A DNA stretch of 64,000 bases from Clostridia bacterium (GCA_050951325.1 JBMNIW010000008.1:96266-160265), one strand, 5' to 3'; shown: positions 1 to 55,486, counted from the first letter of the stretch. Program-made: numbers and translations. Notes: generated by a model from the letters alone, not told the origin.

Positions 1-1
1 C

Positions 2-1543: not shown

Positions 1544-1557
1544 ATGGAGTGAAATTC

Positions 1558-2076: not shown

Positions 2077-2101
2077 ACAATAATAAATATGGAAGGGGTA
2101 A

Positions 2102-3097
<996 letters not shown>

Positions 3098-3109
3098 GGG
3101 GAAATAAAA

Positions 3110-4762: not shown

Positions 4763-4777
4763 AAGGAGGGTATTAGA

Positions 4778-6283: not shown

Positions 6284-6293
6284 AGGTAGCTAT

Positions 6294-7913
6294 ATGGATA
6301 AAGTGTATGTGGAAATACTTGACTCAACGCTGCGTGACGGCGCACAGGGAGAAGGAATTTCCTTTTCAGTAAGTGACAAACTGAATATTGTGAAGGCATT
6401 GGACGCCTACGGTGTGGATTACATCGAAGCAGGCAATCCAGGTTCTAATCCAAAGGATTTGGAGTTCTTTGATAAAGTCTCCAAACTAAACCTCAAGAAC
6501 TCCAAACTCTGTGCCTTTGGAGCAACCAGACGCAAAGGAATAAGACCAGAGGAGGACGTAAACATCCAGTCCCTCCTCAAAGCGAACACTCCCGTGGTTG
6601 TAATCTTCGGCAAGTCTTGGGACCTGCATGTAGAAGAAATATTAAAAGCAACCCTTGAGGAAAACCTGGAGATTGTCAAGGATACTGTCGAATATTTGAA
6701 GTCAAAGGGCAAGGAAGTTTTCTTTGATGCAGAACACTTCTTTGACGGATACAGAGCAAACCCAGACTATGCCTTGGCTGTTCTAAAAGCGGCCTTGGAT
6801 GGAGGTGCGGACCTCCTCTGCCTTTGTGATACAAACGGCGGCTGCATGCCCGACTATGTTTATGGTGTCACAAAGAAAGTGAAGGAAACCTTTAAAAATG
6901 CACGTATTGGAATCCACTGCCACAACGACGCAGGTTGTGCCACTGCCAACACAATGCTGGCAGTAAAAGCAGGTGCAACCCATGTCCAAGGCACCTTTAT
7001 TGGGTTTGGTGAAAGATGTGGCAACGCAGACCTAAGCATAATCATACCAAACCTGAAATTAAAATATAACTATGAGTGCAGTGGAAAGCTTGACATGCTT
7101 TACACCATCTCAAGAAGCATAGCTGAAATATCAAACGTGCAAATAGACAGCAACAGGCCTTTCATTGGCTCAAGCGCATTTGCACACAAGGCAGGTATGC
7201 ACATAGACGGGGTATTGAAAATGCCCATGTCTTTTGAGCATATAGATCCACAAGCTGTAGGGAACAAAAGAAAGTTCCTGGCCTCCGAGGTCTCGGGAAG
7301 AGGAGCTATAATTGAAAAGGTTAAAAGCATCTGTCCACACCTGACAAAAGATTGTCCTGAGACCTCCCTTATACTAGAAAAACTGAAAGAGATGGAGCAC
7401 TTTGGCTATCAGTTTGAAGCAGCTGACGCCAGCTTCGAGCTTATGGTAAAGAGGCTTTTAGGTAGTCACAAGTCCCACTTTACCCTTGACTTCTATAAAA
7501 CCATTGGAGAGTTCCCTGCTCCAAATGGCGAAATGCAGTCCTCTGCAACCATAAGGGTAACCGTGGACGGCCAGGAGGAAATGACAGCCTCTATGGGCAA
7601 AGGTCCGGTTCATGCCCTGGATCAGGCTTTAAGAAAAGCCTTGAGTGTATTCTTCCCCGTCATAAAGACTATAAGACTTACAGACTACAAAGTGCGTGTA
7701 CTGGATCAGGAAATGGCCACTGCGGCAAAAGTACGCGTTTTGATTGAGAGCACCGACAACAAACAGACATGGACCTGTGTTGGTGTATCAAATGACATAA
7801 TAGAGGCAAGCTTGATTGCCCTGATAGACTCAATAGAATACAAATTATCATTATGTGAAGAGGAGGAAATAAAGAATGTCTGCAATGACGATGACTCAGA
7901 AAATATTGGCTAA
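6294..7913 (+). CDS. cimA: (R)-citramalate synthase (IPMS/homocitrate synthase family paralog)
   Basis: 539 aa; [17 protein letters not shown]… NPGSNPKD pattern typical of CimA-type paralogs in ilv-leu operons of anaerobes; substrate assignment is by family resemblance only. Confidence 0.65.
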
Positions 7914-9144
7914 ACATGCAAATCTTGATTCAGTGACTGCAGGACAGCTTGTGCTTGTGGACGTGGATATGGTATTGGGAAATGACATTACATCTCCCGT
8001 TGCTATAAATGAATTCAACAAATTGAACCTGGACAAGGTTTTTGACAAGGAAAAAGTAGCGCTTGTTATGGACCACTTTACACCAAACAAGGATATAAAG
8101 GCGGCCGAACAGTGCAGGCAATGCCGTGAGTTTGCCATGGAAATGAACATCACCAATTACTTCGAAGGTGGTAATGTAGGTGTTGAACATGCCCTATTGC
8201 CTGAAAAAGGACTTGTTACCGCCGGTGACTTGGTAATAGGTGCGGACTCCCATACATGTACCTATGGAGCCCTTGGAGCCTTTGCTACTGGTGTAGGTTC
8301 AACTGATATGGCATGTGGCATGGCAACAGGCAAAGCCTGGTTCAAGGTTCCTTCTGCCATCAAGTTTGTACTGACAGGCAAACCAAGCAAGTACTTGATG
8401 GGCAAAGACATAATTCTTCACATAATTGGAATGATTGGTGTTGACGGTGCTTTGTACAGATCCATGGAATTTACAGGCGACGGTCTTAAGTATCTTTCAA
8501 TGAGCGAAAGACTGAGCATGGCAAACATGGCAATTGAAGCTGGTGCAAAGAACGGCATTTTCGAAGTGGACGAAACAACCCTTGAATTCCTCAAGGAAGT
8601 TGGAGCAAAAGAACCAGATGTATACAAGGCAGACGAAGATGCAGAATATGACGAGGTATATACAATAGATCTTTCAAAACTGGGACCTGTTGTGGCCTTC
8701 CCTCACCTGCCAGAAAACACAAAGACATTTGATCAGTTTGATGACATCAAGATTGATCAGGTTGTAATCGGCTCCTGCACAAATGGAAGACTTGAAGACT
8801 TGAAAGTTGCAGCAGAAGTATTAAAGGGAAGAAACGTTGCGAGTCACGTAAGAGCAATCATAATACCAGCAACACCAAAGATCTATCTCGAAGCCCTTGA
8901 AAAGGGTTACCTGAAGATATTCATGGATGCAGGATGCGTGGTCTCCGCTCCAACCTGCGGACCATGTCTTGGTGGACACATGGGAATCCTTGCAAAAGGA
9001 GAAAGAGCGGTTGCTACAACCAACAGGAACTTCGTAGGTAGAATGGGTCATGTTGAATCCGAAGTATATCTTGCAAGCCCTTATGTGGCTGCTGCCAGTG
9101 CTATCACAGGCAAGATATCTCATCCAAGAGAAGTAATGGAATAG
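7876..9144 (+). CDS. leuC: 3-isopropylmalate dehydratase large subunit
   Basis: 422 aa aconitase-family; cluster-ligand Cys motifs ([16 protein letters not shown]); overlaps cimA 3' end; strong RBS GAGGAGGAAA. Confidence 0.9.
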
Positions 9145-9160
9145 GAAGGAGAGACGAACA

Positions 9161-9658
9161 ATGAATGCTTACGGTAAAGTTATAAAATACGGCGACAATG
9201 TGGATACCGACGTCATTATCCCTGCAAGATACCTTAACACTACTGACAAAAAGGAACTTGCCTCCCACTGCATGGAAGACATTGATCCTGATTTCAAGAA
9301 CAAGGTAGAACCAGGAGACATAATTGTTGCAGGAAGAAACTTTGGATGCGGTTCTTCAAGAGAACATGCCCCAATTGTAATAAAAGAAAGTGGCATTTCA
9401 CTGGTAATTGCAAAAAGCTTTGCCCGCATTTTCTACAGAAATGCAATAAATATCGGGCTTGCAATTATTGAATGTCCGGAATGCATTGATGAAATGGACG
9501 AAGGTGACAAGGTACGTGTCGATTTTGACAAAGGTGAAATCGTCAACGAAACCAAGAACAAAACTTATAAAGCATCTCCCTTCCCTCCTTTTATCCAGAC
9601 CATTATACAAAATGGCGGACTAATAAACTCAATTAAGAACAATGCCTTTGGAGGTTAA
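9161..9658 (+). CDS. leuD: 3-isopropylmalate dehydratase small subunit
   Basis: 165 aa aconitase swivel domain ([14 protein letters not shown]). Confidence 0.9.
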
Positions 9659-9659
9659 C

Positions 9660-10709
9660 ATGGACTTTAGAATTGCATTGATAAAAGGTGACGGCATAGG
9701 TCCTGAAATTGTGGACAGTGCCACCAAAGTACTCGACAAAATCGGCGAAAAGTTTAATCATAAATTCAACTACGTTGATCTTATTGCAGGAGGAGTTGCC
9801 ATAGATAAATATGGCCACCCTCTTCCTGAGGAAACTGTAAAAGAGTGCCTGAAAAGCGACAGCGTTATTCTAGGAGCTGTAGGTGGCCCTAAATGGGACA
9901 ACCTCCCAGGTGAATTAAGACCGGAAAGAGCTCTTCTGGGAGTAAGGAAAGCTTTAAACCTCTACTCCAACCTAAGACCAGCAAAGCTCTACAAGGCTCT
10001 TCAACAGTACTGCCCTCTTAGAACCGCATCAAGCTTTGACATACTAATTGTCAGAGAACTTACAGGCGGCATCTATTTTGGTGAAAGAGGAAGAAGAAAT
10101 ACCGAAAATGGAGTTGAAGCCTACGACACTGAGAGTTACAGTGTAATGGAGATTGAGAGAATAGGAAGAGTTGCTTTTGAAGCTGCAAGAAAAAGAAACA
10201 GAAAACTTACAAGCATAGACAAGGCCAATGTGCTTGAAAGCTCCAGACTTTGGAGAGAAACAATGCACAAACTTAAAGAGGAATACAAGGATGTTGAATA
10301 CAGCGATATGCTGGTAGACAACGCAGCAATGCAGCTTATTCGCGACCCATCCCAGTTTGATGTAATAGTTACCTCCAATATGTTTGGAGACATTCTATCC
10401 GATGAAGCTTCACAGCTTACAGGCTCAATTGGAATGCTTCCATCAGCATCTCTTGGAGAGGGAACACTAGGCCTGTATGAGCCAATACACGGTTCTGCTC
10501 CAGACATTGCAGGCACAAAGAAGGCAAATCCAATTGCCACAATTCTTTCAGCCAGCATGATGCTTAGATACTCTTTCAACCTTATCGAGGAAGCAGACGC
10601 CATAGACAATGCGGTGGAAAAAGCCCTTGATATAGGCTACACCACCAGCGACATAGGCGGCAATCTGAATACAGATGAGGTAACTCAAAAAATAATTGAA
10701 CTTATATAA
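9660..10709 (+). CDS. leuB: 3-isopropylmalate dehydrogenase
   Basis: [14 protein letters not shown]… isocitrate/isopropylmalate dehydrogenase family; ATG at 9660 preceded by GGAGG (longer ORF from 9642 overlaps leuD). Confidence 0.9.
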
Positions 10710-11300: not shown

Positions 11301-12203
11301 CTAATGAAATACAAGTTTTCCAACCACATGAGAAACAGGAATAAGGCCTTCATGTCTTGAATCGCGACTTACATTCCTGTTGTCCCCCATTACGTAAATA
11401 TAACCTTCCTCGACTGTAACTGTTACACCATTAGGGTATGTAAACACATCCTGGGTGTAGATATAGTCTTCCTTGAGTTTTTGTCCGTTTCTGTAAATCG
11501 CGTTGTCCTTGAACTCAATAACGTCCCCTTCTACACCAATTACCCTCTTTATCCAAAACACATCGACTTCGTATTCAAACAAATCTTTTGTAAGCAAGTT
11601 GTATTTTAGAGTCTCCGCAACGGATTTCACAAAAGTTCTTTCTTCTTTAATATTACTGTCTATTACAACAATATCGCCAAATTTAACATCGCCAAAAACG
11701 TAAGGAAGTCTTGATATATATACTGTTTCATTATCAACTAAAGTGGGAACCATTGAATCTCCGGAAACCTTGCTGGGTCTTAGAACATACATATTGATTA
11801 AAAGTGCCAGAACAAAAGCGAACGTTATGGTAAATATCCAACTAAATATTTTTCTTGTAACCTTCTTGATTATAACTGAGCCGTTGTTGAAACTGTCCTT
11901 TTCCTCAATTTCGACAACTTCAATGTCGTTATCGTCGTCTTCATCATTACTGATATCATCATAGTTATCTTCATTTACATCTTCTACAATGTATTCTTCC
12001 GGGTTGGAATCGAAAATCGGGGGAAAACTCATTTCCTTGTTTTCAGTAAATCCAAACTCTAGTAGTTCAATCGCCGATATTCTATTAGGCTCTTTCTGCT
12101 CACCAAATCTGAGCGACTCAAATTCAATATCATCCGTCGCCTTGCTGCGCAGATATTCATTCTTGTCATACACTGCCTTCAATTTGAATCTCATGCAATA
12201 CAC
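11301..12203 (-). CDS. lepB: signal peptidase I (S26) with long acidic N-terminal extension
   Basis: Catalytic Ser box SGDSMVPTL, box E GDNRNVSRDSR, single TM before catalytic domain; N-terminal 70-130 aa D/E-rich (start uncertain: GTG 12203, ATG 12194 or ATG 12032). Confidence 0.75.
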   Translation of the reverse strand: MYCMRFKLKAVYDKNEYLRSKATDDIEFESLRFGEQKEPNRISAIELLEFGFTENKEMSFPPIFDSNPEEYIVEDVNEDNYDDISNDEDDDNDIEVVEIEEKDSFNNGSVIIKKVTRKIFSWIFTITFAFVLALLINMYVLRPSKVSGDSMVPTLVDNETVYISRLPYVFGDVKFGDIVVIDSNIKEERTFVKSVAETLKYNLLTKDLFEYEVDVFWIKRVIGVEGDVIEFKDNAIYRNGQKLKEDYIYTQDVFTYPNGVTVTVEEGYIYVMGDNRNVSRDSRHEGLIPVSHVVGKLVFH

Positions 12204-12275: not shown

Positions 12276-12351
12276 TGGTGGGTTGTAAGGAACTCGAATC
12301 CCTGACCCCATGCACGTCAAGCATGTGCTCTACCAGCTGAGCTAACAACCC
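12276..12351 (-). tRNA. tRNA-Val (anticodon GAC)
   Basis: Reverse complement folds as cloverleaf: GGGTTGT acceptor, GCTCAGCTGGTAGAGC D-arm, anticodon loop TTGACGT, GGTTCGAGTCC-like T-arm (GGGATTCGAGTTCC), 3' CCA encoded. Confidence 0.85.
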
Positions 12352-13112: not shown

Positions 13113-14201
13113 ATGCGTTGTCCAAATTGTGGCAAAAAGTTAGATAAAAAAGTTGATATTAAGAAGTGCAGCTATTGCGGCACAAAAATGAAGTGGAAAG
13201 AACCTTGGGATTTAACAACCATAATACTCTTATGTATTACCATTGTCCTGTTTGTCGTATTTCTTTATGTTGTATACGACAGATTCCTTGAAGATAAAAT
13301 AAAGGACAAATATGACAAGGACCCAATTGTAAAGACTACACCTTCATATAGCGATGACAATTTCGATACAGGAAACACCATGGGCAATCTGCAAAACGGA
13401 GGACTTGTTGCAGAAACCGATGACTATGTATATTATCTTGCAATAAACAAGAAGAAAAACATGACATTCATGAGAAGATCCAAAACAGACGAAACAGATG
13501 TGAAGAAAATAGCTGAAGGTAATATTAGATACATCAGCGTTATGAAGGATGCTATATACTTCACTGACAAAGAAAATCACTTAAGCACGATTGCACTGTC
13601 AGGCAGCAAAAAAGACCTTGTTCAGAAAGTGGCTATTGAAACCACATACAATTATACATTGGCAGTTGGTGACTGGATATACTATTGTGACGAACAATTC
13701 AAACTACATAGAATCCGTCCAAACGGCAGCAAGAACACAGCCCTCTCCGAAGGCAAGTTCAAGAGAATCCAGGCAGCCGAAGATATGATCTATGGCCTAA
13801 ATGAGAGCGGTAACATTGTATACATCAAAGGCAATGGTGATAACGAAACAGTCACGGATGTAAAAGCCAACGAGTTTGTAGTATATAACAAGGATTGGAT
13901 ATACTTTCTTGATGACGATGCCATTTACATGGCCAGCACTGAAGACTTCAGCACAGAAAAAGTAAAAGAGATAAAAGCATCCTGCCTAAACATCTTTGAA
14001 GACAAAATCTACTACTTTGACAAGGATGCAGGAAAAGTCTTCTCCATGGATATCGATGGAGAGAATGTGGAAGAGATTGTGGAATTCAATACCAGTGCAA
14101 TATTTGTAACAAAGAGTTCCCTCTTCCTAAAGAGTGCGGAGGATGATCTCATCTACGAATACAAGTTCGGAGAAGATGATGAACCTAAACTTGTGGCATA
14201 A
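13113..14201 (+). CDS. membrane-anchored repeat protein: N-terminal zinc ribbon (CPNCG…CSYCG), one TM, extracellular DUF5050-like beta-propeller repeats
   Basis: Repeated D(W/Y)(I/V)YY… blocks (DYVYYLAINKK, DWIYYCDEQFKLHRIRPNGS, DWIYFLDDDAIYMA, DKIYYFDKDAGKVF) recalling DUF5050/YWTD-like repeats. Confidence 0.5.
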   Translation: MRCPNCGKKLDKKVDIKKCSYCGTKMKWKEPWDLTTIILLCITIVLFVVFLYVVYDRFLEDKIKDKYDKDPIVKTTPSYSDDNFDTGNTMGNLQNGGLVAETDDYVYYLAINKKKNMTFMRRSKTDETDVKKIAEGNIRYISVMKDAIYFTDKENHLSTIALSGSKKDLVQKVAIETTYNYTLAVGDWIYYCDEQFKLHRIRPNGSKNTALSEGKFKRIQAAEDMIYGLNESGNIVYIKGNGDNETVTDVKANEFVVYNKDWIYFLDDDAIYMASTEDFSTEKVKEIKASCLNIFEDKIYYFDKDAGKVFSMDIDGENVEEIVEFNTSAIFVTKSSLFLKSAEDDLIYEYKFGEDDEPKLVA

Positions 14202-14231: not shown

Positions 14232-14944
14232 ATTTATAGAATAATCAAAGTATTGGTCCTGAATAATCAGCTTCTCTTCATCAAAACATATGGCACAGGA
14301 ATACCTTCCAATAATCCTACCCGTATATCCATCAATTCGCATTTCAGCATTAATTAACAATTTACCATTGGAAAATTCAAAAGTTTCAACCTTGAATGGT
14401 TGGGAAAGATATAATTCATAAAGGTTTCCATCCGCATCATGGTAAAAACTTAGGTCTTCAATTACGACATACTGCCTCCATCCGGTTTTGTGTTTTCCAA
14501 AGACAACTGAGGAAAAAACTCTTGATTTGGTATTTGCTTCATCCCATTATCAGTAACTTTAAAGAACAAAAACTTATACGTTGGATTAAAATCCAATCCT
14601 TCGTTTGATGCCAATACACTCTTTGTAAGCTCCAAACTGGTTAAAACAACCTCACCTATACTGTTGCGCTGAAGCACATATTTATCCCCTCCCAAAACAA
14701 GTTCCCAAAAAATATAAGTAGTAGATTCAGGAGAAGGAGTAGGCTCGCTGGTTGGGACAAGCGTAGGCGGAAGAGTTATAATCCTTTCAGTAGCCGCTGC
14801 ACTTACAGTTGATTTCGGAGATTGGGTTGCATTAAGATCTTCGTTCTGTTTGCTCTTGATGAAGTGATTTACAAATAATACAAGACATAGAATTGTAAAC
14901 AAGCTTATGTATAAAACTGTTTTTAGTTTTCTGTTTGTTGTCAT
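14230..14944 (-). pseudogene. surface/membrane protein gene interrupted by a frameshift (or sequencing error) near 14462-14490
   Basis: 160-aa ORF (TM + Pro/Thr linker + domain) stops at 14462; an 85-codon open frame in +1 phase (…KTGWRQYVVIEDLSFYHDADGNLYELYL…QYFDYSIN*) continues to 14230 right before the terminator. Confidence 0.45.
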
Positions 14945-15120: not shown

Positions 15121-15543
15121 CTATATATTTTCGTGTTTTAAATAACAATACAAAAACCCGCAAAGTACAAGTCTTAATACCAATGCCAATACATGCGGTA
15201 CAATAAACACGTCATTTGCAAAAAGACCAATAAAAAATACTATACCAGCTGCAAAATCAACTGCCGTAAGAACAAAAAAACCCTTGTAACGCTTTTTTAT
15301 AACCGTTCTAAAGTATATGACAAACAAGGAAATAAGAAAGGTAATGAAATATAAAAAGGACATAATTTGTAATACTTCATTATCTACAGCCAGCAATGCC
15401 AGAAAAGAATTCAAAAGAGAGTATGAACCCATGAAAAAGGCCAACTCAAAAGGCAAACTCAGCAAAAAGAACGAAAGTATTGACAATAACAGATACACAT
15501 GCGGAAGAAGTTTTACTATTGCACTAGTCCATTTTTTCTTCAC
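15121..15543 (-). CDS. hypothetical small integral membrane protein (4 predicted TM)
   Basis: 140 aa, hydrophobic segments; GTG start with AAGGAGGG RBS. Confidence 0.4.
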   Translation of the reverse strand: MKKKWTSAIVKLLPHVYLLLSILSFFLLSLPFELAFFMGSYSLLNSFLALLAVDNEVLQIMSFLYFITFLISLFVIYFRTVIKKRYKGFFVLTAVDFAAGIVFFIGLFANDVFIVPHVLALVLRLVLCGFLYCYLKHENI

Positions 15544-15645
15544 TTGAAACCCTCCTTGTAACTGTAAACCTTATCCAGATTTTAGTTTCATACTTCACTT
15601 TTGTCAATATAAAAACTGCCTGAACAAAATCCAAGCATCTTAAAA

Positions 15646-16908
15646 TCATTCCATTCCAACAATCCTTATATTGAGGGTTCCTATTGCAGTATCAATCTCG
15701 TCTACCAAAACAATCCACTTGTCACTTACATACATAAGATTATTGTCAACTGATACTCCTTCAATCAAAAAGAAATCCATTGTTGTTAAATCCACCATGA
15801 ACAAGCCTCTCCAGCCGTTCAGATCAAAAACAAATACTTTGTCCGAGCAAAAGGCAGGCTCCCCTTTATAGGATTCCAGTTCGGACATTCGAACAGAATA
15901 TGCATAACCCAGTATACTCAAGTCCATTTTTGATAATGCTTTGTACGTATGACTTGCAAAATACAATGTATTGTCATATATCCCAATACCACTAAAACTG
16001 TTAAGACTTACATCTATATTCTGCTGTTTTTTTGTATCCATGTTGTATACCTTAATGGAAGTCTTGTTCACATTCAGGAATACCAGGTAGTTTTCACTCA
16101 TGTAAAAAGGTTCAGGAATATATGGTATACCTACATTCAAGGAACCGTGAACCGGTATCTCATAAACCATGGATTTATCACCTGTTATCATGTTTATCAG
16201 GTAATAGCGGATATAGGATATTGAGCCTGCTAATGCTTCTGCATATACAACGCAGTCTTCTGTAACCATGTATACATCAATCAGATTATCCATATCAATC
16301 GGCAGTATTTTTTCATTATCCCAGAAATAGGAGTTGCAGTAGTACCTGTCCCCTGACTTGTATACAACGTGTTTCTTCCCTGTTTTTAGATTTTCCACAC
16401 CCGATGATATCCTTGTCAAGCTGCCTGACTTTTTGTCAACATTGTACAGACTGTATAACATGCTTGATTCATCATGCACAGATAAATAAATATCGTCACT
16501 TGCTATTACGAAATCCAACTGCTTTTTGCTTGCTATCTTTTCAGACAGCTGTAGCTTTATGCTGCTGGTCCTGGCATTCAATATTTTGTAAGGTACCGGA
16601 GTTGGGCTTGATGTAGGCTCAGGAGTAAAGGTGGGACTCATGTATGTTGCGGTTGCATATACTGTAGTTACAGGTTCCTCGGTAGGTGTATTGATCAGCA
16701 CAGGATCTTTGTTGTAGTCATTTGCTACATAGTTTAGTAGGATCACTGCAGCCACCAGCAGCCAGCAGGCAGCTGCAATCGTTCCTAAAATTTCAGCACC
16801 TTTAACCTTTTTCAAAGATTTTCTGGACTCAAGCTTCTTTACTCTTTCAATAAGCTGATTGTCCGCCTTTATTTTTCTTATCGTATCCTTTATATCCTTT
16901 CCAGTCAT
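15646..16908 (-). CDS. membrane-anchored DUF5050-like repeat protein (cytoplasmic N-term ~45 aa, 1 TM, Thr/Pro linker, extracellular repeat domain); third gene of ECF sigma operon
   Basis: TM AILGTIAAACWLLVAAVILL, linker TPTEEPVTTVYATATYMSPTFTPEPTSSPTP, repeats DIYLSVHDESSMLYSLYN / DVYMVTEDCVVYAE / NTLYFASHTYKAL / NLMYVSDKWIVLVD similar in style to 13113-14201 protein; 4-nt overlap with upstream gene. Confidence 0.5.
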   Translation of the reverse strand: MTGKDIKDTIRKIKADNQLIERVKKLESRKSLKKVKGAEILGTIAAACWLLVAAVILLNYVANDYNKDPVLINTPTEEPVTTVYATATYMSPTFTPEPTSSPTPVPYKILNARTSSIKLQLSEKIASKKQLDFVIASDDIYLSVHDESSMLYSLYNVDKKSGSLTRISSGVENLKTGKKHVVYKSGDRYYCNSYFWDNEKILPIDMDNLIDVYMVTEDCVVYAEALAGSISYIRYYLINMITGDKSMVYEIPVHGSLNVGIPYIPEPFYMSENYLVFLNVNKTSIKVYNMDTKKQQNIDVSLNSFSGIGIYDNTLYFASHTYKALSKMDLSILGYAYSVRMSELESYKGEPAFCSDKVFVFDLNGWRGLFMVDLTTMDFFLIEGVSVDNNLMYVSDKWIVLVDEIDTAIGTLNIRIVGME

Positions 16909-18161
16909 GTTTCAGCCCATCTCCTTTTCCTTCTATACAAGGTTAGCGACAACAGGACTAAAGGAACCATAATAACAAAATATGTGTTATCGTTTGTTTG
17001 TGGGTTTTCAAGGAAAGGATTTCTTCCTCCAAACAGGTAATCGTAGTAGTCGCCGCCACTTAATCTCCACCCGTCTTCAGTTTTTACGAACTCTGCCACA
17101 AGATGCACTTTCTCAATATTCTCATACATTGGGTCATGATGGTATTCCAGCACTATCTCTGCCTGTGCCTTTTCCGCATCATTGGATATTATTCGACACA
17201 TTTCCGGGTAAAACTTCAAAGGAATATACTGAGCTCCGATATAGAGGAGGTATACTCTGTCACCTTCTCTAATAAAGCCCTTGTTATTCTCTTTTCCAAG
17301 CACTTCATTTATTTTGTCTTCTGTAAACACCCTTTTCGCCAGGTTTACCCAGTCATCATAGAATTGAAAACCCCTGCAGGGAACTTTTACAAACCCAAAT
17401 TCGCTTTTTATGTCTGCATCTTCACTGCCCAAGCCAGACAAATTGAACAAAAACTCGTTATATGCTCCATTTTGCAAAAAGAAAGACAACTGATACGCAT
17501 TTTGAGCAAGGATCCTAACTTCATCCAGTGTTATTTCATCACCATTTTCTTTGGGCATCACTCCAAAATACTTTGGAACATAATTTACATCGCATACCCT
17601 CACACCTTCTTCAGTCTTCCTAATATATACACCTATATGCCTTACATATATCTCTATATCATTAAAACCATGATCGTAGTAAAGATAAGGAACAATAACG
17701 TACGCTTCTCCATCCTTGTTGTATTCCACTCTAATATTCTCCATCAGCTTTTCGGGCAGAGAATACACATCCTGCTCATCACTTTTACGGTAGTACACCT
17801 CATCTCCCTGAACAACAATCTTTTTATATTTCTCCAATTCCTTGTCAATCAAATTTTGCATTTCTTCGGTATAAAAAGACCTCATCTTTTCTTCAAGTTG
17901 CTCAAGGCTTTTGTAATCCCCTATTCCGGGATAGTATTTATCAGCACCAGAGGTAACAGGTGATGCATTTTCATCAATAATGTTGTCAGTATAAAGGAAA
18001 GTATTAGAAAAAAACTCAAATGACTCTACGATAAGGCTTTCCATTTCGCTTTCACTAATTGCATTGTCATTGGAATAAACACAAACACCAAACACAGTTG
18101 CAATCACACATATCAAGATAAAAATCCTTTTCAATTCACTCACCTCATATGTTTTCCTCAT
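16905..18161 (-). CDS. secreted cell-wall-anchored protein with sortase-B-type sorting signal NPQTN
   Basis: N-terminal signal peptide; C-terminus …ENPQTNDN-TYFVIMVPLVLLSLTLY-RRKRRWAET (motif + hydrophobic span + basic tail); overlaps ECF sigma gene by 17 nt. Confidence 0.55.
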   Translation of the reverse strand: MRKTYEVSELKRIFILICVIATVFGVCVYSNDNAISESEMESLIVESFEFFSNTFLYTDNIIDENASPVTSGADKYYPGIGDYKSLEQLEEKMRSFYTEEMQNLIDKELEKYKKIVVQGDEVYYRKSDEQDVYSLPEKLMENIRVEYNKDGEAYVIVPYLYYDHGFNDIEIYVRHIGVYIRKTEEGVRVCDVNYVPKYFGVMPKENGDEITLDEVRILAQNAYQLSFFLQNGAYNEFLFNLSGLGSEDADIKSEFGFVKVPCRGFQFYDDWVNLAKRVFTEDKINEVLGKENNKGFIREGDRVYLLYIGAQYIPLKFYPEMCRIISNDAEKAQAEIVLEYHHDPMYENIEKVHLVAEFVKTEDGWRLSGGDYYDYLFGGRNPFLENPQTNDNTYFVIMVPLVLLSLTLYRRKRRWAET

Positions 18162-18681
18162 AGACTTTCAGCATCTCTCTTGCTCTTTGCAATCTCTTCT
18201 TTACCGCAGAAGAAGAAATATTCAGTATCTTGGCTATTTCATCCACCTTGTACTCTTCCACGTAATAAAGTAGAATGACGGCTTTGTACTTTTCTGGGAG
18301 TTTGGAAACTGCATCAAATATGGAAAAGTCCTTGTATGTAAAGTCGTATACTCCCAAATCCTCCATACTGACATATTCATGTCTTTTCCTGGCTCTTAGT
18401 TTGTTTTTGCATACGTTGATGCAAACACGAAGAAGCCATGCCTTTTCGTGTTCCTCATCATTGAATTTGGGCTTTTTGTAAAGGTATCTCATAAATGTAT
18501 CCTGCACCGAATCTTCGGCATCCTGCTTGTTGCGCAACATGGACAAGGATAACCTGTAGAGCATATCTCCATATTTTTCGACAGGAATCAATAACTTCCA
18601 ACTCCCTTCAACATATACACACATGAAGCAAGCATTTGGTGACACAATTTTGATTATATTACCAAAAAAACACAATATCAA
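18145..18681 (-). CDS. ECF-type RNA polymerase sigma-70 family factor
   Basis: Region 2 (DAEDSVQDTFMRYL…AWLLRVCINVCKNKLRARKR) and region 4 HTH (VEEYKVDEIAKILNISSSAVKKRLQRAR); true start probably internal (ATG 18621 or TTG 18591 with GAAGGGAG RBS). Confidence 0.8.
   Translation of the reverse strand: MILCFFGNIIKIVSPNACFMCVYVEGSWKLLIPVEKYGDMLYRLSLSMLRNKQDAEDSVQDTFMRYLYKKPKFNDEEHEKAWLLRVCINVCKNKLRARKRHEYVSMEDLGVYDFTYKDFSIFDAVSKLPEKYKAVILLYYVEEYKVDEIAKILNISSSAVKKRLQRAREMLKVYEENI
18653..18681 (-). promoter_or_regulatory. candidate sigma-A-type promoter of ECF sigma operon (TTGATA-17-TATAAT)
   Basis: Reverse complement reads TTGATAttgtgtttttttggtaaTATAAT upstream of the sigma gene. Confidence 0.4.
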
Positions 18682-18740: not shown

Positions 18741-18873
18741 GCCAACCCTTATGGGTGTAGCCGGGTCTTACGCAACGCTAGAACGTGAACCCCGTCAGGT
18801 CCGGAAGGAAGCAGCGGTAAGCGTGACCTATCGTGTGCCGTAAGTTTCCCCGGTTACACCCAGTAGGGTTGGC
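18741..18873 (+). ncRNA. ffs: signal recognition particle RNA (4.5S/scRNA)
   Basis: Contains SRP domain IV consensus GTCAGGTCCGGAAGGAAGCAGC flanked by long terminal helix GCCAACCCTTATGGGTGTA/TACACCCAGTAGGGTTGGC; located immediately upstream of dnaX as in other Firmicutes. Confidence 0.75.
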
Positions 18874-18903: not shown

Positions 18904-20610
18904 ATGGCATATGTTGCTCTTTACAGAAAATGGAGACCCCTCACATTTGACGAGGTAGTGGAACAGGAAAGCATTGTCACAATACTGAAAAACACAGTCA
19001 AAACAGGACGTATCGCCCATGCCTATCTTTTTTGTGGAACACGAGGTACCGGTAAAACCACCCTTGCGAAAATTTTTGCAAGGGCTATAAACTGCCTTTC
19101 ACCAAAAGACGGCAATCCTTGCAACGAATGCGATATATGCAAGGGCATATTGTCAGGACAGATTTTAGATGTATCGGAAATAGACGCAGCTTCAAACAAC
19201 GGCGTTGACAACATAAGGGCAATAATCGATGAAACAAACTACGCTCCTTCCATTTCCAAATACAGAGTATACATCATAGACGAGGTTCATATGCTCTCTA
19301 CAGGAGCTTTTAATGCCCTGCTTAAAACACTGGAAGAGCCGCCAAGTGGTGTAGTTTTCATACTGGCAACCACAGAGCCCCACAAGCTCCCGGTGACAAT
19401 TCTTTCAAGATGTCAAAGATACGACTTTAAACGCATATCAAGACAGGGAATAATGTCCCGTCTTGAAGAAATATGCAAAGATATTGGAGTAAAGTATGAG
19501 ACACAGGCTCTTAACTTCATAGCGCAAAAAGCAGATGGCGCATTAAGAGACGCCATAAGTATTCTTGACCAGACAATAGCAGCAAGCGAAAACAACATAA
19601 CATTAAAAGCAGCAAGGGATTCTTCAGGTTCATTGGATAGAATGTTCATAGAACAGTTTGCAGAAAAGCTTCTTCTGCAGGATGGAGGCTCAATATTAAA
19701 ACTTTCAGACAGCATCTTCGCAGATGGAAGAGATCCTTCAAACTTCATATCAGAACTCATGGGTCTTTTCAGAAGTCTTCTCATTGTTCAAAATGTAGAC
19801 AATCCAAAAGAACTGCTTTATGAGGACGACGAGGAGATTGAAAGACTTAAGAAACTCTCCAGCCTTACAAATACAAAGGAAATTGCATACCTTGTAAAAG
19901 AGCTGTCCAAACTTGAAAACAACCTTAAATGGGCAGTGCAAAGAAAAATTGTATTTGAAGCTGGAATGCTTAACCTGTGCGACAGAAGAACAAGCACTGA
20001 AGACGACATGGCAGACAGGATAAGTTTGCTTGAAAGCAAACTGGCCGATTTGGTAGCCAATGGACTAAAATATGCCCAAGTATCCCCTGTAGTGGCAGTG
20101 GAAGAAAAGGTTGAAAAAGTCGAGGAGAAAAAAGAAGAAAATATTGTAGAGCCAAAGGAAGAACCAGTAAAAGAAGAGATTGTTGAAGCTAGGCCCACGA
20201 AAGAGTCAAAAAGCGCAAAACCCATTGACACTCTGGATTGGAATGACTTCTTGCAGAATATTACTGACAAAAACAAATCATCCATATCTGCTTTAATAAG
20301 GGTGAACAGTAAAGGTTTTGTTCTTGAGCCTAATATACTTATAATTGCCTTTTCAAACAAAATGATGATGGACATGGTTGTAAGAAACAATGTGTTTGAC
20401 ATATTGGACGAGTCAGCGTCAATGGCCTTTGGAAAACCCATGAAAGTAAAGCTTTTAATGGAGGACGAACTGGAAGCTTTCAGCGCAAGTTCAGCTGTAG
20501 AAGAAAATGAGCAGGAAAATAAGGAAAAGGACGACAACTTTGAAAATGCACTCAATCTACTCAGTCAACTGGCTGAGGATGAAGGGTTTGAAGTATTCAA
20601 TATTGAGTAA
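18904..20610 (+). CDS. dnaX: DNA polymerase III subunits gamma/tau
   Basis: Walker A GTRGTGKTT, zinc module CxxC…C, AAA+ clamp-loader boxes (SRCQRYDF). Confidence 0.9.
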   Translation: MAYVALYRKWRPLTFDEVVEQESIVTILKNTVKTGRIAHAYLFCGTRGTGKTTLAKIFARAINCLSPKDGNPCNECDICKGILSGQILDVSEIDAASNNGVDNIRAIIDETNYAPSISKYRVYIIDEVHMLSTGAFNALLKTLEEPPSGVVFILATTEPHKLPVTILSRCQRYDFKRISRQGIMSRLEEICKDIGVKYETQALNFIAQKADGALRDAISILDQTIAASENNITLKAARDSSGSLDRMFIEQFAEKLLLQDGGSILKLSDSIFADGRDPSNFISELMGLFRSLLIVQNVDNPKELLYEDDEEIERLKKLSSLTNTKEIAYLVKELSKLENNLKWAVQRKIVFEAGMLNLCDRRTSTEDDMADRISLLESKLADLVANGLKYAQVSPVVAVEEKVEKVEEKKEENIVEPKEEPVKEEIVEARPTKESKSAKPIDTLDWNDFLQNITDKNKSSISALIRVNSKGFVLEPNILIIAFSNKMMMDMVVRNNVFDILDESASMAFGKPMKVKLLMEDELEAFSASSAVEENEQENKEKDDNFENALNLLSQLAEDEGFEVFNIE

Positions 20611-20622
20611 AGGAGTATTGCC

Positions 20623-22245
20623 ATGTTTGATATTTTCCCCATCAGCTCTTTAGAAAGAGTATTTATGGATCTTCCCTTTGAAGCAAAGCCATTACACAAG
20701 GCAACAATGCTGAAAAACGAATACTATTCTTTTCAGTTTGCCTACAAGCTAAGTCATATGGCACCGGCAACCAATATACCAGTGCAGCTTGAGGTGACCC
20801 ATGATTTTGGAGATTCATTAATTGTAAAGTTTGTGGATTACGTGCCCTGCGATTTGGCTATCTATGATAACGCCACCGAACCGCTGGAACACCCTTGGCC
20901 TGGTCTTTTTCCAGACATATTAAGGCCGATGCCAAAACAATTGTGGGCGTTCAAAAAGAACTACAGAAGCGTATGGATTACAATCAACGGAAAGAATATT
21001 GAAAGTGGTACCTACACCATAACAGCTACTATAAGCAGTGGGGATACCAAAAAGAGCACTTCCTTTGAATTAACGGTTCTGGACAAGGAACTTCCCAGGT
21101 ACGACTTCAAGTGCACAAACTGGTTTTATACGGATTGTCTGTGCAACTACTACAACATCGAGTTCAATTCTGAAGAATACTGGAGGATAACGGAGGAATT
21201 TGCAAAGGAAGCTGCAAGACATGGCGTCAATATGCTCCTTACCCCCATATTCACTCCCCCGCTGGATACCAGAGTGGGTGGTGAAAGAAGAACCATCCAG
21301 CTTGTGGATGTATACAAAAATGGAGACAACTACACCTTCAACTTTGACAAGCTGGCAAGATGGGTGAACATGTGCAAAAGGGCAAATATCGAATATTATG
21401 AAATATCTCACCTTTTCACCCAATGGGGCTGCAAACACGCTCCTAAAATAATGGGATATGATAATGGAGAGTACAAAAAACTATTTGGCTGGGAGACGGA
21501 TGCCCACGGCAGTGAATACAGAAGCTTTTTGTCACAACTTATTCCTGAACTTGTGAAGGTATTAAAAAAACTAGGCATAGCGGACAAATGTTACTTCCAT
21601 GTATCCGACGAGCCGAATCTTTCCATGCTGGAAGACTATAAAAGCAGTGCCATGTTCTTGAAAGAGCAGCTAAAAGGCTTCAAGATGTTTGATGCTCTCA
21701 GTTCCATCGAATTCTATAAAGAAGGACTTGTTACCTGCCCTATTCCGTCATTGGATCATTTGGGGCCGTTTCTTGAAGAAGACATTGAAGAACTCTGGAC
21801 CTATTACTGCTGCGGACAGGTTACCGTGTCAAACAGGTTTCTCGCCTTCCCTTCATCAAGGAACAGATTGCTTGGATTGATACTGTTCAAGTATGACATT
21901 AAGGGGTTTTTGCAGTGGGGACTAAACTTCTACAACTCCTGGCTGTCAATTGAGGAAATCAACCCCTTTACAAACAGCACCGGAGGAGGATGGGTTCCAG
22001 GAGGAGACACTTTCGTTCTCTATCCAAATGATGATGGCAAACCATTGTCATCTATCAGGTTTGAAGTCTTTAGAGAAGCCCTCCAGGATATGCGTGCACT
22101 AAAGGCTTTGTCTGAAAAAAAAGGCAAGGACAAAGTCTTGGAAATAATAAACAATAGTATAAAAGGTAAATTATCGTACAAGACTACGGATATAAAAGCA
22201 GAAGATTTGATTGGAATAAGAGAAAGAGTAAATATGGAGTTGTAA
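20623..22245 (+). CDS. hypothetical protein, possibly DUF4091/glycoside-hydrolase-like
   Basis: 540 aa soluble protein; no cofactor motifs recognised; family guess from overall composition only. Confidence 0.35.
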   Translation: MFDIFPISSLERVFMDLPFEAKPLHKATMLKNEYYSFQFAYKLSHMAPATNIPVQLEVTHDFGDSLIVKFVDYVPCDLAIYDNATEPLEHPWPGLFPDILRPMPKQLWAFKKNYRSVWITINGKNIESGTYTITATISSGDTKKSTSFELTVLDKELPRYDFKCTNWFYTDCLCNYYNIEFNSEEYWRITEEFAKEAARHGVNMLLTPIFTPPLDTRVGGERRTIQLVDVYKNGDNYTFNFDKLARWVNMCKRANIEYYEISHLFTQWGCKHAPKIMGYDNGEYKKLFGWETDAHGSEYRSFLSQLIPELVKVLKKLGIADKCYFHVSDEPNLSMLEDYKSSAMFLKEQLKGFKMFDALSSIEFYKEGLVTCPIPSLDHLGPFLEEDIEELWTYYCCGQVTVSNRFLAFPSSRNRLLGLILFKYDIKGFLQWGLNFYNSWLSIEEINPFTNSTGGGWVPGGDTFVLYPNDDGKPLSSIRFEVFREALQDMRALKALSEKKGKDKVLEIINNSIKGKLSYKTTDIKAEDLIGIRERVNMEL

Positions 22246-26735: not shown

Positions 26736-28034
26736 ATGATTATACTCAGACAAGGCCAAAGAGGTCCGCAAGTTGAAATGCTGCAACTTGCACTAAACCG
26801 CGCGGGGTTCAACGCAGGACCCATAGATGGTGTATTCGGACCGAACACTCTGAATGCAGTCTTGCGTTTTCAATCAAGCCGTTCCCTTACCCAAGATGGC
26901 ATAGTAGGACCAGCCACTTGGAACGCCCTACGACCCTATCTTGTAGGTTACACAACCTATAGAATAAGAGCTGGAGACACTCTATTTCGAATTTCCACCA
27001 GCAGAAACATTCCCCTTCAAACAATACTGATTGCTAATCCCAATGTCAGTCCCGCAAACCTGATAGTAGGATCTGAACTCATACTCCCCTTCCCCTTTGA
27101 CATAGTCGCTGATAACGTCACCCTAACATACGAACTGATGGAGCTGTACATAGAAGGAATTGTAACAAGGTATCCATTTGTAAGGAGCGGAATTCTTTCA
27201 ACAAGCTCCTCAGGTACAAGGAATATATATAACCTTGTAATTGGTACTGGCAGCAATCAGGTAATGTACAATGCCACTCACCATGCAAACGAGTGGATTA
27301 CTTCCCTTCTTCTCATGAAATTTATTGAACAATACGCAAAAGCCTATGCCCATGGCTACAACATTGCAGCAGGCACTCCTGCTGAAACACCGGCTGATTT
27401 ATTGTACGACTATTCTACAATTCATTTTGTACCCATGGTGAATCCGGATGGTGCGGATTTGGTCACAGGAGGAATCCTTCCAAACACCGAACTTTACAAT
27501 ATTGCACGAAGCATTAGTCAAAACTATCCCAACATCCCATTCCCATCAGGATGGAAAGCCAACATCTATGGAGTCGACCCAAATCTTCAATATCCTGCAG
27601 GATGGACTGAAGCCAGAAGAATAAAGTTTGCACAAGGATTTACCTCTCCTGCCCCCAGAGACTTTGTAGGCTACGGGCCGTTAACAATAAACGAAAGCAT
27701 TGCAATGGCAAACTACACAAGTGCAAACGATTTCAGGCTGACTCTTTCCTACCACACCCAAGGCAGGGTTATTTTCTGGAAGTACCTTGACTACAATCCT
27801 CCAAATTCTGAGCAAATTGGCAGACTCTTTGCAAATTTAAGTGGTTACGCTCTTGAAATAACTCCTTATGAGTCAGGGCATGCAGGCTACAAGGACTGGT
27901 TCATACAAGATTTTAACAGACCCTCCTATACTATTGAAGCAGGTCTGGGAACAAGTCCCCTTCCTCTAAGTCAATTCCCAACAATCTACAACGAAAACAG
28001 AGGCATACTTGTAATGGCAGCCTTGGTTACATAA
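26736..28034 (+). CDS. cell-wall peptidase: PG-binding domain + LysM + M14 zinc carboxypeptidase (gamma-D-Glu-meso-DAP endopeptidase-like)
   Basis: PG_binding_1-like GQRGPQVEMLQLALNRAGF…DGVFGPNTLNAV; LysM YRIRAGDTLFRIS…; M14 motifs HANEW, later His/Glu zinc ligands. Confidence 0.75.
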   Translation: MIILRQGQRGPQVEMLQLALNRAGFNAGPIDGVFGPNTLNAVLRFQSSRSLTQDGIVGPATWNALRPYLVGYTTYRIRAGDTLFRISTSRNIPLQTILIANPNVSPANLIVGSELILPFPFDIVADNVTLTYELMELYIEGIVTRYPFVRSGILSTSSSGTRNIYNLVIGTGSNQVMYNATHHANEWITSLLLMKFIEQYAKAYAHGYNIAAGTPAETPADLLYDYSTIHFVPMVNPDGADLVTGGILPNTELYNIARSISQNYPNIPFPSGWKANIYGVDPNLQYPAGWTEARRIKFAQGFTSPAPRDFVGYGPLTINESIAMANYTSANDFRLTLSYHTQGRVIFWKYLDYNPPNSEQIGRLFANLSGYALEITPYESGHAGYKDWFIQDFNRPSYTIEAGLGTSPLPLSQFPTIYNENRGILVMAALVT

Positions 28035-55276: not shown

Positions 55277-55486
55277 ATTCTTTCCTCCAATCATTATTAT
55301 CTTAACAGTATTTTAAAATATTAGCAAAATATAGTCAATACTTTTGTTGTTCGAAACATAAAATAGACTTATATTATTAATAATAAATACATTAATAACA
55401 TGTATAATATAATTTGGTGGTCTGTTGACCATTTTTCATATAAATGCTAAGATTAAATGTCATGAAATTTTGTTTGGGAGGGTAAC

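Follow-up and report, generated by a model that had tools for sequence, protein, structure and literature searches.

In the Firmicutes systems SigW-RsiW, SigV-RsiV and SigP-RsiP, a group 4 sigma factor is paired with a single-pass, N-in membrane protein whose extracytoplasmic domain is large. The cytoplasmic part of these canonical anti-sigma factors comprises about 60–90 amino acids, and the ZAS domain, with its H-x3-C-x2-C motif, is an N-terminal helical domain of the same size. Class II short anti-sigma domains, as in CnrY-CnrH and NepR, are very short, consist of helices only and contain no zinc; CnrY reportedly uses two helices over about 45 residues. ECF sigma operons can also encode an envelope-exposed accessory, as in sigE-cseA-cseB-cseC of Streptomyces coelicolor and FecI-FecR-FecA, in which the lipoprotein CseA (at +1) and the outer-membrane transducer FecA modulate or feed the membrane sensor. 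Across ECF groups, anti-sigma factors are specific to their group, usually span the membrane with one helix and for the most part lack a Pfam match, and they are typically encoded at +1 relative to the sigma factor (PMC7826278).

The locus described here lies in a 64,000-nucleotide window (the whole stretch of DNA analysed) from an uncultured digester Clostridium. It consists of three consecutive ORFs on the minus strand, 18145–18681, 16905–18161 and 15646–16908 (genes 1, 2 and 3), as an earlier note made from the DNA alone had reported, and reading of the ORFs confirms this arrangement. The genes are real, closely packed and under purifying selection. As in the Firmicutes pairs, a group 4 sigma factor is encoded with an N-in, single-pass protein that has a large extracytoplasmic domain, and as in the sigE-cse and Fec operons an envelope-exposed candidate accessory is present. 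The candidate anti-sigma factor is found at +2 rather than +1, with a sortase substrate inserted between it and the sigma factor. The accessory is predicted to be anchored to peptidoglycan by a sortase, unlike those of sigE-cse and Fec, the membrane component does not resemble FecR and is not a histidine kinase, and no homology to either system was detected. The features are as follows.

18653–18681, minus strand: sigma-70-type promoter of the operon (-35 TTGATA, 17-nt spacer, -10 TATAAT)
18145–18591, minus strand: gene 1, ECF sigma factor of 148 aa (TTG start with GGGAG ribosome-binding site; Pfam, TIGR02937)
16905–18161, minus strand: gene 2, secreted orphan protein (409 aa if translated from TTG 18134, the likelier start; 418 aa from ATG 18161)
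18072–18161, minus strand: gene 2 signal peptide, (MRKTYEVSEL)KR-IFILICVIATVFGVCVYS followed by NDN, with hydrophobic residues 6–32
16908–17006, minus strand: gene 2 C-terminal cell-wall sorting signal (NPQTN-D, a 17-residue hydrophobic stretch, RRKRRWAET)
15646–16908, minus strand: gene 3, single-pass type II membrane protein of 420 aa, candidate anti-sigma factor/sensor (ORF; no family match)
16798–16908, minus strand: gene 3 cytoplasmic N-terminus, residues 1–37 (predicted helix 3–26, then a basic linker)
16723–16797, minus strand: gene 3 transmembrane segment, residues 38–62, with an invariant AAACW
16588–16722, minus strand: gene 3 extracellular Pro/Thr/Ser-rich linker, residues 63–107, starting with a conserved DPV..T.T
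15649–16587, minus strand: gene 3 extracellular all-beta domain, residues 108–420, modelled as a beta-propeller of about seven blades
15617–15637, minus strand: weak hairpin resembling a terminator, immediately past gene 3 (stem of 9 pairs, of which 3 are G-C, then GTTTTTATAT)

Gene 1 is a bona fide minimal ECF (group 4) sigma factor, and the identity given to it in the earlier note is upheld: the protein is small, contains sigma-2 and sigma-4 domains only (Pfam Sigma70_r2, E = 3e-13; Sigma70_r4_2, E = 1.5e-18) and scores 85.2 bits against TIGR02937 (sigma70-ECF), above the cutoff of 42.9. Among solved structures, B. subtilis SigW (5wuq, E = 1.4e-18) is the closest relative, and CnrH (4cxf) is also detectable as a relative (E = 3e-6). 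SigW, SigV or SigM equivalog status is not indicated, as gene 1 falls below every NCBIfam equivalog cutoff (93.9 bits versus 209 for SigW; 87.4 versus 190 for SigV). The start that had been proposed at 18681 is incorrect. The TTG at this position is the -35 hexamer (TTGATA), and codons 1–30 of the long ORF have a dN/dS of 1.19, compared with 0.20 for the remainder; these extra 30 codons are promoter and leader. The true start, TTG 18591, is set by the upstream GGGAG, by dN/dS and by PGAP calls of 148 aa in two MAGs. No second sigma factor was found among the scanned ORFs of at least 130 aa, which cover most of the window.

The operon promoter matches 11 of 12 consensus positions, is joint best in a 5-kb scan and is kept as TTGAAA...TATAAT in the 83% relative (L003). 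Promoter-like sites across the region are at chance level (15 found, 16.4 expected); the promoter was accordingly assigned from how well it matches, where it lies and the non-coding dN/dS of the stretch. An ECF-type autoregulatory promoter (AAC...CGT) was not seen by eye upstream of the sigma gene, a region that is comparable in one relative only, at 94% identity. The near-consensus sigma-70-type promoter and the lack of a visible ECF-type motif suggest that the sigma factor is probably made constitutively and in need of post-translational control. No terminator was found inside the operon; past the hairpin that follows gene 3 are a promoter-like TTGACA-17-TAAAAT and a strong Shine-Dalgarno sequence for the next gene (15121–15543). 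The 4-nt overlap of genes 2 and 3 (ATGA) described in the earlier note is present in the sequence and couples gene 3 translationally to gene 2 within the sigma operon. The overlap also described between genes 1 and 2 depends on the start of gene 2, amounting to 17 nt if ATG 18161 is used but disappearing with TTG 18134, which lies 10 nt past the sigma stop, is preceded by a GAGGTGA Shine-Dalgarno sequence and is the start chosen by NCBI annotators (409 aa). The 286-aa ORF antisense to gene 2 (17103–17963) was rejected as a shadow ORF, being only 177 aa long in L001.

Gene 2 has a signal-peptide-like N-terminus, with a V-Y-S site ahead of residue 31 identified by reading the sequence, and a C-terminus that reads ...ENPQTND-NTYFVIMVPLVLLSLTLY-RRKRRWAET, with NPQTN at 16992–17006; signal peptide, motif, hydrophobic stretch and positive tail are the features of a sortase substrate. 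The predicted sorting signal fits the sortase B (class B) motif in its N-terminal Asn and its acidic P2′ residue, and Asp at P2′ is needed by the B. anthracis SrtB (PMC11987632). The N, P, T and P2′ Asp are invariant in three lineages (NPQTND, NPKTND and NPQTLD; relatives about 43% identical), of which NPQTLD deviates at P1′. Three further secreted proteins in the window terminate in the same arrangement of NPxTxD, hydrophobic stretch and basic tail, so that the sortase-B-type signal first noted on gene 2 is both conserved across lineages and found on other proteins of the organism. The class B motif with P2′ Asp and the tripartite architecture are shared with IsdC, the single known SrtB substrate in S. 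aureus and B. anthracis; gene 2 differs in having no NEAT domain or haem-uptake context, its distant relatives have N or L at P1′ in place of G or N, and several unrelated candidate substrates occur here. A search for srtB, which the earlier note had suggested, found no sortase within the 64-kb window, with no TLxTC ORF and no Sortase Pfam match among the scanned ORFs of at least 130 aa. That four window proteins carry the tripartite signal speaks for a dedicated sortase gene in another part of the 2.5-Mb genome.

The body of gene 2 has no Pfam or NCBIfam match, even at E up to 10, and no similarity to IseA or any other family was found by sequence or profile. As the structural model has a pLDDT of 39, its fold matches (IseA/NTF2-like) are unreliable. 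An NTF2-like element, if real, would be located on a separate wall-anchored protein and not on the anti-sigma factor as in SigI-RsgI of Clostridium thermocellum, a system from which this locus also differs in that its sigma factor is ECF and not SigI. A tandem duplication within gene 2 is weakly suggested (BLASTP E = 0.013, hhalign E = 0.29).

Gene 3 is N-in and single-pass. The earlier note's description of a short cytoplasmic N-terminus and an extracellular repeat domain agrees with this topology, but the N-terminus is about 37 residues long, not about 45. It contains 13 Lys/Arg and 5 Asp/Glu, and it is the best-conserved part of the protein, at 97% identity compared with 80% for the ectodomain in a close relative and 46% compared with 36% in distant ones; dN/dS is 0.28 overall, 0.12 for the N-terminus and 0.30 for the ectodomain. 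Residues G3, I6, K7, K12, I13, K14, D16, E21, K24, L26 and E27 are invariant. The predicted helix is present in the structural model; its amphipathicity is not significant by a helical-moment test (p ~0.2). The alanine run of AAACW in the transmembrane segment recalls the alanine-rich tag that is reportedly exposed on RsiW after site-2 cleavage. P, T and S account for 22 of the 45 linker residues, and D68, P69 and V70 are invariant. The ectodomain was modelled as a propeller of about seven blades at low confidence (pLDDT 56 for the model), and the protein has no Pfam or NCBIfam match, even at E up to 10.

The assignment of gene 3 to DUF5050 that the earlier note proposed has to be withdrawn. 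Neither gene 3 nor its 38% homologue P0032 matches PF16472, BLASTP returns nothing, and hhalign against an alignment of a DUF5050 neighbour gives 1% probability, over the transmembrane region only; the solved DUF5050 relative 3s25 fits the gene 3 model no better than unrelated propellers do. The true DUF5050 protein is the product of that neighbouring gene (13113–14201), 1.4 kb away, and the distant contig L004 likewise has an adjacent DUF5050 gene. The DUF5050 (LRP1-like beta-propeller) proteins of Clostridia do resemble gene 3 in being single-pass, and have a propeller ectodomain of about seven blades like the one modelled for gene 3; both the neighbour and gene 3 have a juxtamembrane DP[VI]..T motif. 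They differ at the N-terminus, which in gene 3 is a helix and not a zinc ribbon.

No recognisable anti-sigma factor accompanies the sigma gene, in agreement with the earlier note. None of the real genes in the window contains the H-x3-C-x2-C motif, and the scanned ORFs of at least 130 aa, which represent most of the window, yielded no known anti-sigma domain of Pfam or NCBIfam, zinc-finger or otherwise. As the lack of a Pfam-recognisable anti-sigma factor is the rule for ECF groups, this absence is less remarkable than had been implied. Genes 2 and 3 have no match to zf-HC2 or RskA (ZAS, class I anti-sigma). For gene 3, whether used in full or as residues 1–69, there is no match to PF13786 (DUF4179) or PF12791 (RsgI_N) at E up to 10, and its N-terminus yields chance matches only against PDB (with a four-sequence profile) and Pfam (E up to 10). 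The similarity to anti-sigma domains that the earlier note had proposed to look for in this segment was thus not found in Pfam, NCBIfam or PDB. The segment resembles class II domains in being very short, helical and without zinc; it departs from CnrY in its single predicted helix of about 24 residues and in its lack of sequence similarity, and the ectodomain of gene 3 is modelled as a large propeller where CnrY has a short periplasmic tail. To our knowledge, no anti-sigma domain with a characterised structure is as short as this cytoplasmic segment of about 37 aa and one predicted helix.

Three other candidates were rejected: gene 2, which has at most 12 cytoplasmic residues at its N-terminus and a tail of only 5–9 residues; a 140-aa polytopic protein (15121–15543) with no cytoplasmic domain and its own promoter-like site; and a 160-aa single-pass protein (14462–14944), also without a cytoplasmic domain. 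In L004, the interval separating the gene 3 homologue from the DUF5050 gene contains a counterpart of neither of the latter two. Within the operon, only gene 3 has a cytoplasmic segment of more than about 12 residues. It remains the best candidate, as first proposed, being N-in and single-pass, with the helix its most conserved part, and coupled to gene 2.

The three-gene unit was sought in relatives. The full order of sigma gene, gene 2 and gene 3 is kept in a GTDB representative MAG at 83% identity. The gene 2–gene 3 pair recurs in two distant contigs with proteins about 40% identical, each gene 2 bearing a sorting signal, and these contigs end too soon to reveal any sigma gene ahead. Identity of genes 2 and 3 to relatives is 38–43% where that of the DUF5050 neighbour is 69%. 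A word-indexed search with genes 2 and 3 found only themselves and one 83% relative, and HMMER, run exhaustively against 1.84 billion representatives, gave seven matches to gene 3, the best full-length one at 38% identity; one of the seven, P0038 (E = 6.6e-4), was set aside as a borderline match to repeats. No match came from metagenome scans that used P0032 and P0034 as queries. The module occurs only in a few uncultured digester Clostridia and is a lineage-restricted variation on a familiar signalling theme.

These observations can be accommodated by a three-gene envelope-signalling module in which an ECF sigma factor and two extracytoplasmic proteins would be expressed from a housekeeping-type promoter. 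The short, basic, conserved cytoplasmic helix of gene 3 would keep the sigma factor inactive at the membrane, acting as a minimal anti-sigma domain unlike all known classes, and its propeller, spaced off the membrane by the Pro/Thr linker, would sense an extracellular or wall-associated cue. Upon stimulation, gene 3 would presumably be lost by regulated proteolysis, or would change conformation, and the sigma factor would be freed. Gene 2 would be exported, joined to peptidoglycan by a class-B-type sortase via NPQTN-D, and would cooperate with the propeller on the outer side of the membrane, in ligand capture or in modulation of the sensor. That gene 3 is a non-canonical short anti-sigma factor and sensor, and gene 2 its wall-anchored accessory, is a proposal made from sequence that we regard as evenly balanced; the identities and packing of the genes, the topology features, the sorting signal, the patterns of conservation and the conserved gene 2–gene 3 pair are what the sequences show, whereas sigma binding, the signal, proteolysis and physical contact between proteins 2 and 3 are what we infer within it. 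A bolder version, which we consider doubtful, would be a monoderm counterpart of cell-surface signalling, with wall-anchored gene 2 as the primary sensor that acts on the membrane propeller and frees the sigma factor via an anti-sigma element of about 25–37 residues. The relay could proceed by contact between the ectodomains of genes 2 and 3, or the sorting-signal peptide left in the membrane by the sortase, in which P, L, L and T are invariant, could meet AAACW of the gene 3 transmembrane helix.

A simpler account, to which we give a real if minor chance, is that genes 2 and 3 are a mere surface-protein pair riding on the sigma transcript or belonging to its regulon, with the gene 3 N-terminus a topogenic, positive-inside anchor and the sigma factor controlled elsewhere or not at all, like B. 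subtilis SigZ. It is consistent with an N-terminus of only about 37 aa that matches no anti-sigma domain and a helix without significant amphipathicity, with the occurrence of the pair without a visible sigma gene on the short contigs L004, L005 and L006 and the 230-nt spacer that separates genes 2 and 3 in L005, and with the rapid evolution of both proteins (dN/dS ~0.3, compared with 0.08 for dnaX), as is seen for surface proteins. A mere anchor, however, would not be expected to hold 11 invariant residues, charged ones included (K7, K12, K14, D16, E21, K24, E27), where the rest has diverged to 36%; the sigma promoter is of constitutive type with no other regulator in the window, and the full three-gene order is kept where contigs are long enough.

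The remaining readings concern the function of gene 2. By analogy with the sensing of lysozyme by RsiV/sigma-V, the operon could be a unit for control of wall hydrolases, in which gene 2, as an IseA-like protein anchored in the wall, would inhibit or bind NlpC/P60-type endopeptidases and gene 3 would sense wall damage or hydrolase activity, to which the ECF sigma factor would respond. ECF sigma factors commonly answer envelope stress, and in one distant lineage a hydrolase gene (3xLysM, PG_binding_1, NlpC/P60) lies directly downstream of the gene 3 homologue. We find this quite improbable: the hydrolase neighbour occurs in that lineage only and is absent beside the operon in the window and in L004, and the IseA likeness comes from the unreliable gene 2 model, with no sequence or profile similarity behind it. 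Very unlikely, in our judgement, is that gene 2 escapes sortase processing and stays anchored by its C-terminal helix, with the basic cytoplasmic tail contacting the sigma factor alone or with gene 3. The window holds no sortase gene and the RRKRRW tail is conserved in close relatives, but this tail is only nine residues long and in distant relatives is reduced to KRKLV or RRKLI, the positions that never vary belong to the sortase motif (N, P, T and P2′ D) and not to the tail, and the tripartite signal is common to four window proteins.

Full-text literature searches for a combination of ECF and sortase, or for propeller anti-sigma factors, returned nothing relevant. The practical weight of the module is limited, as it belongs to a few uncultured digester Clostridia and unrecognisable anti-sigma factors are already the norm for ECF groups. 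If gene 3 inhibits the sigma factor, its anti-sigma element would be very small, a single helix of about 25 residues with no zinc, and if the sorting-signal peptide does meet the gene 3 transmembrane helix, the ECF system would monitor sortase processing itself. The proposed module, if correct, would be the first ECF module found with a sortase-anchored wall protein as a conserved operon partner of the sensor, and would widen the catalogue of Gram-positive couplings between events in the thick wall and transcription.

The operon comprises three minus-strand genes lying head to tail, which encode an ECF sigma factor (gene 1), a secreted, wall-sorted protein (gene 2) and a single-pass membrane protein (gene 3). 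On its 3′ side lie two small membrane-protein genes, followed by an opposite-strand gene heading towards the operon. The ORF listing and the surrounding features are as follows:

20623–22245, plus strand, GH123 glycoside hydrolase gene adjoining dnaX
18904–20610, plus strand, dnaX, upstream of the operon and in the opposite direction
18759–18858, plus strand, small SRP RNA gene (74 bits), just upstream of dnaX and pointing away from the operon
18145–18681, minus strand, gene 1 ORF
16905–18161, minus strand, gene 2 ORF
15646–16908, minus strand, gene 3 ORF
15121–15543, minus strand, orphan polytopic membrane protein of 140 aa following the operon, conserved in the close-relative loci L001 and L003
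14462–14944, minus strand, orphan single-pass membrane protein of 160 aa with a Pro/Thr linker, following the operon
13113–14201, plus strand, genuine DUF5050 protein (PF16472, E 1e-31), carrying a zinc ribbon at its N terminus and a single transmembrane helix

Genes 1, 2 and 3 are real genes under purifying selection. Compared with the same locus in L003 (GTDB representative MAG Clostridiaceae bacterium AS15tlH2ME_177, gene 3 83% identical), their dN/dS values are 0.20, 0.30 and 0.28, respectively, so that they are more loosely constrained than the flanking dnaX (0.08) and GH123 gene (0.12). A long antisense ORF within gene 2 is a shadow ORF and not a real gene.

The gene 1 product matches Sigma70_r2 and Sigma70_r4_2 in Pfam and passes the general ECF model TIGR02937 (85 bits against a cutoff of 43) and none of the NCBIfam equivalog models; its nearest relative of solved structure is Bacillus subtilis SigW. 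The earlier note, whose observation of this operon is largely correct, requires three corrections, one of which is the sigma start at 18681. This TTG falls in the −35 hexamer of a promoter, TTGATA-17-TATAAT, that matches the consensus at 11 of 12 positions, and codons 1–30 of the long ORF evolve neutrally (dN/dS of 1.19). The supported start is the TTG at 18591, behind GGGAG, which yields a 148-aa protein in agreement with the sigma factor called by PGAP in two MAGs. As the scan overall yields no more promoter-like sites than chance would give (15 versus 16.4 expected), the promoter call is based on match quality and position. The promoter lies 78 nt from the start of the SRP RNA, with both promoters in one 168-bp intergenic region. 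No ECF-type autoregulatory promoter is seen by eye for gene 1, which appears to be constitutively transcribed, and no other regulator of the sigma factor is found nearby.

The gene 2 product begins with a signal peptide and has no sequence match in Pfam, NCBIfam or the PDB; among 5.8 billion clustered proteins, its own 90% cluster is the sole match. The overlap with the sigma gene described previously, the second point to be corrected, holds only if ATG 18161 is used (17 nt), but the better start from the sequence is probably TTG 18134, which follows GAGGTGA, is the choice of the NCBI annotators (409 aa) and leaves a 10-nt gap after the sigma stop. The reported NPQTN sorting signal is borne out: the C terminus is tripartite, ENPQTND-NTYFVIMVPLVLLSLTLY-RRKRRWAET, and relatives of ~43% identity retain the hydrophobic stretch, the basic tail and invariant N, P, T and following D residues (NPKTND, NPQTLD). 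This conservation, together with the presence of similar signals in other proteins of the window, makes the signal credible. Three secreted orphans without a Pfam match carry a sortase-B-like NPxTxD-type tail as in gene 2 (NPETSD or NPPTGD, then a hydrophobic stretch and a basic tail):

41647–42138, plus strand, secreted orphan
50433–51329, minus strand, secreted orphan
52370–53245, minus strand, secreted orphan

The latter two are paralogues of each other, and near each is a Pro/Thr-rich lipoprotein (51558–52247 and 54599–55294), the two lipoproteins also being paralogous. With its N-terminal Asn and acidic P2′ residue, the gene 2 motif is assigned by sequence to the class B sortase class; an Asp at P2′ is required by B. 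anthracis SrtB (PMC11987632). A search for a sortase gene, by TLxTC motif and by Pfam among the scanned ORFs of 130 aa or more, returned none in the 64-kb window of this 2.5-Mb genome.

The start codon of gene 3 overlaps the stop codon of gene 2 (ATGA), as previously described, and its Shine-Dalgarno sequence sits within the RRKRR codons of gene 2. The protein, encoded on the minus strand, is organized as follows:

N-terminal ~37 residues, cytoplasmic, basic (13 K/R), one predicted helix at residues 3–26
Residues 38–62, transmembrane helix with an invariant AAACW
After residue 62, acidic juxtamembrane stretch, short and containing an invariant DPV
Up to residue 107, Pro/Thr/Ser linker, from sequence
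After the linker, all-beta domain, from the model

The N terminus is thus short and followed by a single membrane pass, as proposed, although ~37 and not ~45 residues long. Identity in the cytoplasmic helix exceeds that in the ectodomain both in the close relative (97% vs 80%) and in distant ones (46% vs 36%); dN/dS within gene 3 is 0.12 for this helix versus 0.30, and eleven of its residues, mostly charged, are invariant.

The third correction concerns the DUF5050-like label, which does not apply to gene 3. Pfam gives no match, BLASTP and hhalign against the DUF5050 neighbour return nothing outside the transmembrane region, and 3s25, the PDB relative of the neighbour, stands at rank 42 in the Foldseek list. 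The label was probably carried over from the gene at 13113–14201. These two single-pass proteins, both taken as propellers and otherwise unrelated, have in common a juxtamembrane [N/K]DP[V/I]..T(P) where the membrane helix ends (16678–16710, gene 3 residues 67–77; 13314–13346, DUF5050 protein residues 68–78), whose D, P and V are invariant across four gene 3 lineages; the motif may be a processing site or may be due to chance.

Searched exhaustively with HMMER, 1.84 billion representatives yield only seven matches to gene 3. Informative among them are P0032, a full-length match with 38% identity, and P0034/P0035, which are two pieces from a single further lineage. Their contigs carry a gene 2 homologue just before the gene 3 homologue, and its C terminus consists of NPQTLD or NPKTND, hydrophobic residues and a basic tail. 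On one distant contig (L004) the gene 3 homologue is followed by an opposite-strand DUF5050 gene; there the genes corresponding to 15121–15543 and 14462–14944 are both absent from the interval and identity to the window is 69% for the DUF5050 protein and 38% for gene 3. On another, L006, the gene directly downstream is a wall hydrolase, in this one distant lineage:

L006 1284–2747 (Logan SRR31481453), plus strand, peptidoglycan hydrolase with 3xLysM, PG_binding_1 and NlpC/P60

IseA is an inhibitor of NlpC/P60-type endopeptidases, and the best match of a low-confidence gene 2 model is IseA, which makes this neighbour worthy of note. The distant contigs all end short of where a sigma gene could appear; accordingly, the three-gene unit is shown only for close relatives, and the gene 2–gene 3 pair is what is seen conserved at ~40% identity in distant lineages. 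The orphan status of the operon proteins is attributable to fast evolution.

Elsewhere in the window are the following:

1–10709, plus strand, ilv/leu biosynthesis operon, housekeeping context
11301–12203, minus strand, signal peptidase I gene (longest ORF, GTG start)
12279–12351, minus strand, tRNA gene flanked by those for the signal peptidase and an SGNH hydrolase
26736–28034, plus strand, wall peptidase with PG_binding_1, LysM and M14, housekeeping context
29797–31437, minus strand, ORF of 546 aa, no Pfam match at E 1e-5 or better
36280–36969, minus strand, ORF of 229 aa, likewise without a match at that threshold
36992–38305, minus strand, ORF of 437 aa, likewise

The signal peptidase has a ~120-residue acidic-rich N-terminal extension before its S26 domain, which may be partly a product of the ORF call. 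In Bacilli, site-1 cleavage of RsiV and RsiP is carried out by signal peptidases.

Whether gene 3 encodes the anti-sigma factor is evenly balanced. In favor of this assignment, gene 3 alone among the operon proteins has a cytoplasmic segment of any length, its layout is the standard N-in single-pass one, constraint within the protein is strongest on the cytoplasmic helix, the AAACW of its transmembrane helix is kept invariant, and the sigma factor is apparently constitutive with no other regulator close by. Against it, the N terminus shows no similarity to known anti-sigma domains, the comparison that had been proposed as a check; to our knowledge, anti-sigma domains of known structure all exceed 37 residues and one helix; and a position at +2 is atypical for an anti-sigma factor. 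Genes 2 and 3 could instead be a plain surface-protein pair, a doubtful reading that is consistent with their pairing on the distant contigs and leaves the constraint on the cytoplasmic helix to be accommodated. A version of the module that controls wall hydrolases in the manner of IseA is improbable, the downstream hydrolase being found on L006 and a DUF5050 gene on L004. In an ECF reclassification, most putative anti-sigma factors lack a Pfam match, are specific to their group and possess a single transmembrane helix (PMC7826278), so that a missing recognizable domain carries little weight against gene 3 as an anti-sigma candidate and is also not very remarkable. The interpretation offered in the earlier note is plausible but unproven.

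In comparison with known systems, the module would work like a transmembrane sigma/anti-sigma switch of the SigW/RsiW or RsgI type. It belongs, however, to no defined anti-sigma family, as gene 3 failed all tests for membership in ZAS, DUF4179 and RsgI_N, and full-text searches turned up neither an ECF operon with a sortase-anchored partner nor a propeller anti-sigma factor. Extra envelope proteins occur in other systems, namely CseA, encoded with sigE in Streptomyces, and FecA, the transducer of cell-surface signalling in Gram-negative bacteria, and these are the nearest functional analogies to gene 2 as an additional envelope protein. The operon itself is confined to a small number of uncultured Clostridia from digesters.
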